DNA of 62,818 bases, counting the filler, from Sphacelaria rigidula (Eukaryota): assembly GCA_964200075.2 (NCBI GenBank). It is 9 parts of 9 records of this genome, joined end to end, with 100 filler letters (N's around TTAATTAATTAA, not from the genome) between each part and the next. Parts side by side here need not be neighbours in the genome. Positions count along the whole stretch, not along the records: positions 20,975 to 27,865 come from CAXNAA020017556.1; 8 more parts are not named here. One strand, 5' to 3'. The position numbers and the translations under genes are program-made. How positions within the stretch are numbered: the first letter of the stretch is position 1; each line of letters opens with the position of its first letter. Shown piece by piece: positions 24,747 through 25,170 of this stretch. Below the pieces are notes generated by a model. That model was not told the DNA's origin. It did not search any database and worked only from the letters and a program-made list of their open reading frames with translations.

Positions 24747-25170
24747 CGTCGCCGACGATGCGCATGGCGTCCGAGGTCAGGTTCTTGTAGACCCTGCAGG
24801 GTATAGCCTTCTCTGAGTCGAATAGTCTTTTCCCCGCTGCGACTCTGTGGTTGCCGTCCAGCACTCTGTGATCTGCAGCAGCCATGGCGTCTTGCGTTGC
24901 TGCTTCGTCACCCAGCGCGCTGCTTATTACTAAAGCTGGTGGGTTGTGGGTAAGCCACCCGTTAGTCCTTATTGATCTGATTATGTTATCGAGTCCTCTC
25001 GGGTTTAACTCGCGGGTCAAGGAGGTCAGCGTGATTTGTTTTAATGGGATTTCGAATGTCCCAAGATGACGGCTCCCCAAAAAGCGATCTAACTTTCCAT
25101 CCGAGGACGATACCCCATTTCCCAGTGAAGCTAACAAATCAGAATGGGCCTGCCCGGCCGTCATTGTCAT
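24747..25170 (-). CDS. First exon encoding a ParB/sulfiredoxin-fold N-terminal domain protein
   Basis: 141 codons from aaacATG; IPLKQI...TRELNPRGLDNIIRSIRTNGW...PPALV...HRVLDGNHRVAAGKRL...IPCRVY follows the ParB N-terminal domain layout; ends at donor G|GTAAGC (24746). No downstream exon identified. Confidence 0.72.

Follow-up and report, generated by a model that had tools for sequence, protein, structure and literature searches.

Is the 141-codon frame on the minus strand at 24747-25170 of a DNA stretch from the brown alga Sphacelaria rigidula part of a genuine algal gene and, if so, what kind of protein does it encode, and to which known systems is it related? The stretch (hereafter, the window) comprises 62,818 nucleotides (nt) of the assembly GCA_964200075.2, filler included, and consists of nine pieces of ~6.9 kb (~6891 nt) that are joined by identical 100-nt linkers (44 N, TTAATTAATTAA, 44 N). 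Only the piece at 20975-27865 (CAXNAA020017556.1) is certain context for the gene in question, the adjoining pieces being possibly non-adjacent in the genome. The explanation that best accounts for the evidence as a whole, to which we assign a probability of roughly 0.6, is that this is an expressed brown-algal gene for a protein with a nucleotide-binding ParB-like module, kin to the accessory proteins of giant transposons.

Gene structure and splicing

The open reading frame (ORF) runs on the minus strand from 25170 to 24715 and encodes 151 amino acids (aa) up to the stop codon. The ATG at 25170 is the earliest after an in-frame TAG (25183-25185) and has an A at position -3; from it, 141 codons and one base reach 24747, and a GTAAGC donor follows at 24746-24741. 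The initial annotation of this locus, made from the sequence alone, had described the intact 141-codon ORF, the A at -3 and the canonical donor, all of which can be seen in the sequence, and the peptide strings that it quoted, VLDGNHRVAA and IPCRV among them, are all found in the translation. The features of the gene are as follows.

25171..25244, minus strand: minimum 5' untranslated part of exon 1 (contig ends and in-frame TAG at 25183-25185)
24747..25170, minus strand: coding part of exon 1, ending in phase 1 (ORF, donor use in contigs of runs X6 and X9, 97 homologues)
24748..25089, minus strand: predicted ParB/Srx-fold domain, residues ~28-141 (AlphaFold2 model, Foldseek, VIA, phrog_1033)
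24844..24858, minus strand: codons for residues 105-109, the D-G-N-H-R loop, which is the motif best conserved in the family (alignment of 81 sequences)
21399..24746, minus strand: intron 1, 3348 nt, GT..AG, holding interspersed repeats (joint in X6 and X9 contigs)
21256..21398, minus strand: exon 2, 143 nt, i.e., 2 bases and 47 codons (tblastn with the relative P0002; acceptor confirmed by contigs)

The length of the exon-1 ORF alone is not beyond chance because the window contains 68 stop-to-stop frames of at least 120 aa. The ORF is nevertheless real, given that it has 97 homologous proteins at E<=1e-3 and that its donor is used in assembled transcripts; a chance ORF at 24747-25170 is thus ruled out by homology and splicing.

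When longer relatives of the exon-1 peptide were compared with the window (tblastn), a second match was found at 21453-21199. It contains an acceptor (...ccag/CT at 21399/21398) and a likely donor (AAC/GTGAGC at 21256/21255), the latter being predicted only. The last base of exon 1 and the CT of exon 2 form an Ala codon that is followed by 47 codons, 31 of them (66%) identical to residues 139-185 of the S. rigidula protein P0002 (E 9e-21). Further exons were not detected in the window by tblastn at E<=20.

Contigs of four small sequencing runs coded as the same organism (X6-X9), presumed to be RNA, were aligned to 21150-25250. The exact joint 21398-24747 is present, with 0 mismatches, in X6 (a 311-nt contig) and X9 (a 198-nt contig); it skips 3348 nt, with the ends CT..AC on the plus strand, that is, GT..AG on the strand of the gene. 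The 5' ends of the contigs lie upstream of the ATG, at 25244 in X7 and X8, 25241 in X9 and 25231 in X6. Long contigs of X7 (2617 nt) and X8 (2652 nt) cover 25244-24747 with their first 498 nt (3 mismatches) and then depart from the locus exactly at the exon-1 donor, without landing on exon 2, which implies a ~2.6-kb mRNA from an allele or paralogue. A 170-nt contig of X6 over the start of the intron (24569-24738) may represent unspliced RNA or DNA.

The position of this intron can also be traced among the relatives, most of which are "proteins" only in the sense of unspliced ORF calls. The pair [GCSR][KE] comes directly after the end of exon 1 in 68 of 80 homologues, compared with a dipeptide background of 2.35%. 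This pair corresponds to read-through of a phase-1 GT[AG]AG donor, and the intron position is therefore conserved across the family; seven of the 12 homologues without it are spliced models that run on into exon-2-like sequence.

Thus, the segment at 24747-25170 is exon 1 of an expressed, spliced, multi-exon brown-algal nuclear gene, the remainder of which lies beyond the 6.9-kb piece that ends at 20975. The GT..AG joint, the host repeats described below and the conserved intron position support the original proposal of a spliceosomal exon in eukaryotic DNA, and the junctions anticipated from donor 24746 exist, the donor being joined to 21398 in the presumed RNA of X6 and X9. The accompanying statement that there was no downstream exon, so that the segment might be a relic, is refuted by exon 2 at 21256-21398 and its splicing to exon 1.

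The exon-1 domain and its D-G-N-H-R loop

Taken as a single sequence, the exon-1 peptide has no ParB match in Pfam, NCBIfam or the PDB sequences. An AlphaFold2 model of the peptide was built on an alignment of 81 sequences (predicted local distance difference test score, pLDDT, 87.2; predicted template modelling score, pTM, 0.75; residues 1-25 disordered), and a Foldseek search with this model gives 19 PDB matches at E<=1e-3. Among the matches listed are PadC (2.2e-5), Noc, ParB of Bacillus, Caulobacter and Myxococcus, and the plant and human sulfiredoxins (Srx), with SbnI, KorB and the free serine kinase (SerK) just above E 1e-3. In a VIA-align scan, which is independent of Foldseek, 12 of the 48,161 chains reach Z>=2, namely PadC (Z 10.3; root-mean-square deviation, rmsd, 2.3 A; 91 aligned), Arabidopsis Srx (8.9), KorB (8.5), free serine kinase (8.2), pNOB8 ParB-N (8.0), SbnI (7.8), human Srx (7.4), Atu1540 (7.0), Spo0J (4.3), Osa (4.0), O-phosphoserine sulfhydrylase (3.7) and SspE (3.0). 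Half of them (6/12) are ParB or Srx by title, and SerK, SbnI, Atu1540, Osa and SspE are, we assume, further representatives of the ParB/Srx fold. The corresponding domain of the Cladosiphon relative P0024 finds the same structural matches (Z 9.6-8.0).

At the level of sequence profiles, the links are weaker. The exon-1 peptide matches phrog_1033 ("ParB-like partition protein") of PHROGs at E 0.0063 and, among the 81 members of the alignment, 12 match phrog_1033 (best 4e-5), four match phrog_3264 and three match phrog_4715 (best 5e-6). The phage "DNA methyltransferase" family phrog_498 is matched, via the N-terminal part of that family, by the ParB-like domain and not by any C-terminus. Sub-threshold Pfam matches among the 81 members are to GmrSD_N (8), DUF1015 (7), DndB (4), ddrB-ParB (2) and DUF6551 (2), all presumably members of the ParB clan. 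On the model, the exon-1 domain is thus predicted to have the ParB/Srx fold, and the assignment to the ParB/Srx superfamily in the initial annotation is borne out by the AlphaFold2 model, Foldseek, VIA and the weak PHROGs matches.

The most conserved residues of the family are R53 (present in 74 of the 81 sequences), G71 (78), D105 (75), G106 (81), H108 (80) and R109 (77). Position 107 is occupied by Asn in 72 sequences, Ala in 7, Tyr in 1 and Ser in 1, and never by Cys or Glu. The D-G-N-H-R motif follows the model strand E101-105 and is a candidate equivalent of the Gly-x-x-Arg phosphate-binding loop of ParB/Srx. The sulfiredoxin loop is G-C-H-R, with the catalytic Cys, whereas canonical ParB CTPases have a GERR box, the Glu of which is used in CTP hydrolysis. 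With neither Cys nor Glu at position 107, the algal domain is therefore neither a sulfiredoxin nor a canonical GERR CTPase. Sulfiredoxin identity, ruled out by the lack of Cys at the loop position in all 81 sequences, had already been rejected in the initial annotation, and the extension of the protein past the domain agrees with that verdict.

To judge from its sequence, the domain appears to resemble the D-G-x-H/Q-R clades of the ParB/Srx superfamily, and it may bind nucleotide without the hydrolysis chemistry of the ParB type. The DndB (PF14072) and GmrSD_N/DUF262 (PF03235) families, which we take to be ParB/Srx clades of the DGQHR/DGQQR type, have the same Asp-Gly-x-His/Gln-Arg loop and are among the commonest sub-threshold Pfam matches (4 and 8 of the 81 members, respectively); SspE appears in the structural scan at Z 3.0. 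The algal domain differs in that it reaches no curated cut-off and in that the PadC/ParB/KorB group scores higher structurally.

With the N-terminal domains of the ParB family (PadC 6ryk, ParB 6sdk/7bm8/7bnk, Noc 7nfu, KorB 8qa8, pNOB8 ParB-N 5k5d), the exon-1 domain shares the fold over ~90-108 residues (Z 8-10.3, rmsd 2.3-3.0 A, at only 11-24% identity), what appears to be a conserved loop of the Gly-x-x-Arg type, an upstream Arg and a helical region after the domain. It differs from them in having D-G-N-H-R without the GERR Glu and in being eukaryotic, with introns, and none of the canonical ParB features, i.e., a ParA partner, parS or a dimerisation domain, is known for the algal gene.

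A brown-algal family and its probable kin among transposon proteins

An exhaustive phmmer search of 1.84 billion representative proteins identified 97 relatives of the exon-1 peptide at E<=1e-3, 25 of them at E<=1e-10, the best having E 2.5e-47 and 66% identity. These family counts refer to clusters at 50% identity, and the copy numbers of subfamilies given below to clusters at 90% identity. Eight of the 26 clusters looked up are named, and all eight belong to Phaeophyceae: Sphacelaria, Pylaiella (two), Cladosiphon, Ectocarpus (three) and Choristocarpus; the other 18 are ENA, Logan or JGI records. A precomputed Pfam domain was found for none of the clusters looked up. There are 90%-identity clusters of 67, 45 and 28 distinct members, distributed over numerous contigs, the longest reaching 1.9 Mb; a single family sequence is present on 25 contigs. 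Many copies have damaged motifs or are truncated, for example, P0114 and the broken 68-aa relative P0016. The family, then, is unannotated and partly highly repeated; on sequence grounds, it appears to be large, fast-diverging and, so far, seen in brown algae only.

With the single peptide, a search for homologues of greater length found none. Among the longer relatives P0024, P0101, P0124, P0002 and P0104, the ~280 residues that follow the domain are conserved and are modelled as helices (pLDDT ~70-89); by eye, the region after exon 1 has some likeness to a helix-turn-helix (HTH) of the ParB type. The longest of these relatives, P0024 of Cladosiphon (843 aa), additionally contains a segment rich in Cys, an acidic tract and ~280 C-terminal residues beyond the conserved region. 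In P0069 of Ectocarpus (431 aa), the ParB-like domain is C-terminal, and residues ~1-300 look by eye like a piece of an hAT-type transposase, without a Pfam match; this may be a chimeric gene model or a nested insertion.

ParB-like domains of algal transposon proteins are already in print, so that the word "undescribed" in the initial annotation was too strong, although a published name for this particular family was not found in the literature searched, in which further papers on brown algae contain nothing on ParB. The 21.5-kb giant DNA transposon Sola1-1_Ec32 of Ectocarpus carries an accessory gene for a 1104-aa protein that combines a ParB-like domain with an N4C/N6A DNA methyltransferase, and such accessory proteins are suggested to bind the transposon from which they come and to modify it epigenetically (Dinatale et al., 2025, PMC12477816, where Petroll et al. 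and Iyer, Abhiman and Aravind, 2011, are cited). PAG3 of the red-algal Plavaka (KDZ) giant transposons is described as a ParB N-domain with a 2-oxoglutarate (2OG) oxygenase, near which arrays of inverted repeats occur in tandem (Petroll et al., bioRxiv 10.1101/2025.02.11.637652). In chlorophytes and chytrids, fusions of Dam-type methylases with an HTH of the ParB type have been reported, as have haptophyte methylases that stem from ParB-terminase loci of phages (Iyer et al., 2016, PMC4738411).

By the published description of the Sola1-1_Ec32 protein, the window gene is similar in being a transcribed brown-algal nuclear gene with an N-terminal ParB-like domain, in having multicopy related subfamilies and an mRNA of ~2.6 kb that implies a long protein, and in that the C-terminus of its 843-aa relative is placed with N6_N4 methylases by ESM-Atlas. 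It differs in that neither a methyltransferase part nor a transposon boundary is visible for it and in that its domain escapes Pfam. With PAG3, it shares the algal origin and the N-terminal ParB-like domain, PAG3 being proposed to bind its own element; the partner domain is another one, and no tandem inverted-repeat arrays lie beside the gene within 20975-27865. The window gene is likely to be a further example of the ParB-like kind already described for Sola1-1 of Ectocarpus. An assignment to the canonical ParB proteins is precluded by the missing GERR Glu and the lack of a Pfam match, and one to the sulfiredoxins by the missing Cys; as the C-terminus is outside the view, the gene cannot be placed firmly among the ParB-methyltransferases either.

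By analogy with these systems, we propose the following scheme. Exon 1 encodes a domain of the ParB/Srx fold, preceded by a brief disordered N-terminus and having the conserved pocket residues R53, G71 and D105-G106-N107-H108-R109, and exon 2 begins the conserved, all-helical region of ~280 residues. As in ParB, KorB and Noc, the domain would serve as a nucleoside triphosphate (NTP)-dependent nucleotide-binding module joined to a helical region that binds DNA, and the protein would belong with the ParB-like accessory proteins that the giant DNA transposons of algae carry; for the window gene, a methyltransferase C-terminus and carriage by a transposon may be envisaged as well. Beyond the gene structure, splicing, fold, conservation of the motif and multicopy family, which we regard as demonstrated, the most likely function is to bind DNA in a nucleotide-dependent manner, as one module of a protein that is associated with transposons and possibly modifies DNA.

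The following observations weigh against this proposal. With respect to the domain, neither the peptide nor any of the 81 members reaches a curated Pfam or NCBIfam threshold, PF02195 (ParBc) is absent among the 25 families listed for these members, and the family profile finds no ParB among the PDB sequences, giving only chance phycocyanin matches (E 0.04). The helical region matches generic helical repeats (Z<=7.4), with a single loose two-domain alignment to Noc (model residues 27-304, Z 8.4, rmsd 9.2 A), and ESM-Atlas gives nothing above 0.86 for it (P0101, 150-430). For the C-terminal 284 residues of P0024, all 30 ESM-Atlas feature hits are to PF01555 (N6_N4_Mtase) clusters with scores of 0.90-0.92, a method that gives ten like-family hits for a third of shuffled proteins too; this part is unsupported as a methyltransferase by Pfam, PHROGs, PDB sequences and phage/plasmid tblastn and is modelled by AlphaFold2 at pLDDT <50. 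The methyltransferase C-terminus of P0024 is accordingly a lead only, and the gene model could be a fusion. As for the window gene itself, its C-terminus is outside the view, since the piece ends at 20975; its own subfamily (P0001, P0121 and P0016) consists of singleton clusters only; and neither a transposase nor terminal repeats nor inverted repeats arrayed in tandem are found within the 6.9-kb piece. Furthermore, the match of the long X7 and X8 contigs to the locus ends at the donor, so that they bypass exon 2, and the RNA status of X6 and X9 is presumed. The earlier suggestion of a link to transposable elements and ParB-methyltransferases thus stands as plausible, on account of the subfamilies of 28-67 copies, the ESM-Atlas lead from P0024 and the published Ectocarpus case (PMC12477816).

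The strongest alternative, which we consider unlikely and still worth serious attention, is a host or domesticated brown-algal ParB/Srx-fold family that functions as a regulator binding chromatin or DNA, with no transposon and no methyltransferase involved. The family-wide intron position, the expression and correct splicing of the locus, the singleton clusters formed by the nearest relatives of the window gene and the piece devoid of transposase and terminal repeats would all be compatible with a host gene, as would the fact that most of the longer relatives (301-470 aa: P0002, P0101, P0104 and P0124) are without an enzymatic C-terminal domain. These longer relatives, however, are partial or short gene models. 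Moreover, other subfamilies have 28-67 near-identical copies spread over many contigs, many copies are damaged or truncated (again P0114 and P0016), and the published ParB-like genes of algae are transposon cargo (PMC12477816; bioRxiv 10.1101/2025.02.11.637652).

Derivation from an integrated giant virus, in the form of a phaeovirus-like endogenous element, or recent transfer from a bacterium or phage is very improbable. Integrated phaeoviruses are known in brown algae, and by sequence profile it is ParB-like families of phages that come closest. Two prokaryotic metagenome proteins with a VLDGNHRV core (L001, 725-1891, and L002, 2041-2916, both on the plus strand) align with hhalign probabilities of 92.7 and 89.0, and one of them is fused to an Lrp/AsnC ligand-binding domain; these loci were selected by the VLDGNH motif itself and hence are biased, weak leads, and Pfam ParBc recognises neither. 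Set against such an origin, 2.9 million viral contigs yielded no relative, either to the peptide or to a close alignment, nor did one genome per prokaryotic species or the first metagenome scan, and the 843-aa P0024 has no match in phage and plasmid records (tblastn); the spliceosomal intron is 3.3 kb long, and its position is common to 68 of 80 relatives. The description of the protein in the initial annotation as prokaryote-type and horizontally acquired is not borne out, given that the searches brought up no closely related sequence from prokaryotes or viruses and that the intron position is conserved.

That the segment is a decaying relic, either an isolated exon or a functionless pseudogene copy, is hardly credible. 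The remaining gene is not visible in the window, P0016 is a broken relative, and the X7/X8 contigs fail to run into exon 2, yet both exons are undamaged, keep the phase and have good splice sites, every conserved residue of the family is retained, the spliced transcript agrees with the locus at 0 mismatches in two runs of presumed RNA, and exon 2 shares 66% identity with P0002 of Sphacelaria. A divergent form of sulfiredoxin, the sole classical eukaryotic ParB/Srx protein, has practically no chance despite the similar fold (Z 7.4-8.9 with human and Arabidopsis Srx; Foldseek E 1.7e-4), because PadC outscores Srx (Z 10.3 vs 8.9), the position of the catalytic Cys is never Cys in the 81 sequences, the relatives extend at least 280 conserved residues further, and the algal protein is larger, multi-domain and multicopy.

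Extending the transposon-related explanation, one can imagine that brown algae possess, throughout the lineage, a growing family of ParB-like DNA clamps that are switched by nucleotides and whose D-G-N-H-R pocket lacks the hydrolytic Glu of ParB. These clamps would load on specific repeats of their own mobile elements or of host loci and recruit or carry an N6A/N4C methyltransferase, forming a eukaryotic self-marking or partition-like system of which the window gene would be a working member. We regard this scenario as rather improbable and offer it as speculation.

Genomic surroundings and significance

The following repeats and linkers were mapped in the window.

22177..22595, no strand assigned: element resembling a miniature inverted-repeat transposable element (MITE), with inverted repeats, in intron 1; it matches 27308-27736 in either orientation at 75-79% identity
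27308..27736, no strand assigned: second copy of the MITE-like element, upstream of the gene (repeat comparison)
21786..21975, no strand assigned: interspersed repeat in intron 1, common to other pieces at 193-374 and 8636-8828
6893-6992, 13884-13983, 20875-20974, 27866-27965, 34857-34956, 41848-41947, 48839-48938 and 55829-55928: linkers between the pieces

The MITE-like element is ~420 nt long, and five further short repeats of the 20975-27865 piece recur in other pieces of the window. Words of the stretch are contained in runs X1-X5 at fractions of 0.32-0.80, and one run is labelled as an algae metagenome. The host repeats, the words in the algal-metagenome run and the MITE-like copies together exclude contamination; in particular, a bacterial contaminant is ruled out by the intron and by the repeats common to host pieces. 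That host repeat families surround the ORF, as originally described, is partly confirmed by the ~420-nt element at two sites and the five short repeats that recur elsewhere. Pfam domains were not found in 13 other frames of this piece.

In the intronic repeat at 21698-21971, the summed contig depth in X6-X9 is ~1450-3670, which indicates an abundantly transcribed or highly repeated family similar to short interspersed nuclear elements (SINEs). Just upstream of the gene, there are long G/C homopolymer tracts with 10-N assembly gaps (25263-25297 and 25399-25461); they sit in a 110-nt direct repeat (25260-25369 and 25428-25537), similar tracts occur in other pieces (56496-56557 and 62727-62778), and the presumed-RNA contigs end just short of the upstream tracts.

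The pieces that have repeats in common carry DDB1-type beta-propellers, a WD40 gene and the integrase of a long terminal repeat (LTR) retrotransposon. Specifically, exons of a double beta-propeller gene of the DDB1/RSE1/CPSF1 type are located at 14582-18647 on the minus strand, with the N-terminus near 18647 (Pfam Beta-prop_RSE1_1st and _2nd, E down to 3e-41). A WD40-repeat exon lies at 11173-11562 on the minus strand (Pfam WD40, E 3e-5), with a likeness to the coatomer-alpha type by eye. The LTR-retrotransposon integrase remnant at 53559-55725 on the plus strand (Integrase_H2C2, E 2.4e-8; rve, E 2e-4) is probably degraded because it is split over several frames.

An orphan ORF is thereby defined as an expressed gene and as part of a ParB/Srx-fold family that is invisible to Pfam and yet widespread and multicopy in brown algae, with 97 clusters at 50% identity, none of them annotated. 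Should the family prove to be cargo of no known use, its recognition would still be useful for the annotation of brown-algal genomes. If, in contrast, it is the ParB module of transposon-borne DNA-modifying proteins, it would open a way to learn how the giant transposons of algae recognise or mark DNA of their own, in a lineage whose epigenetics is unusual, and would also offer a eukaryotic test case for nucleotide switches of the ParB type.

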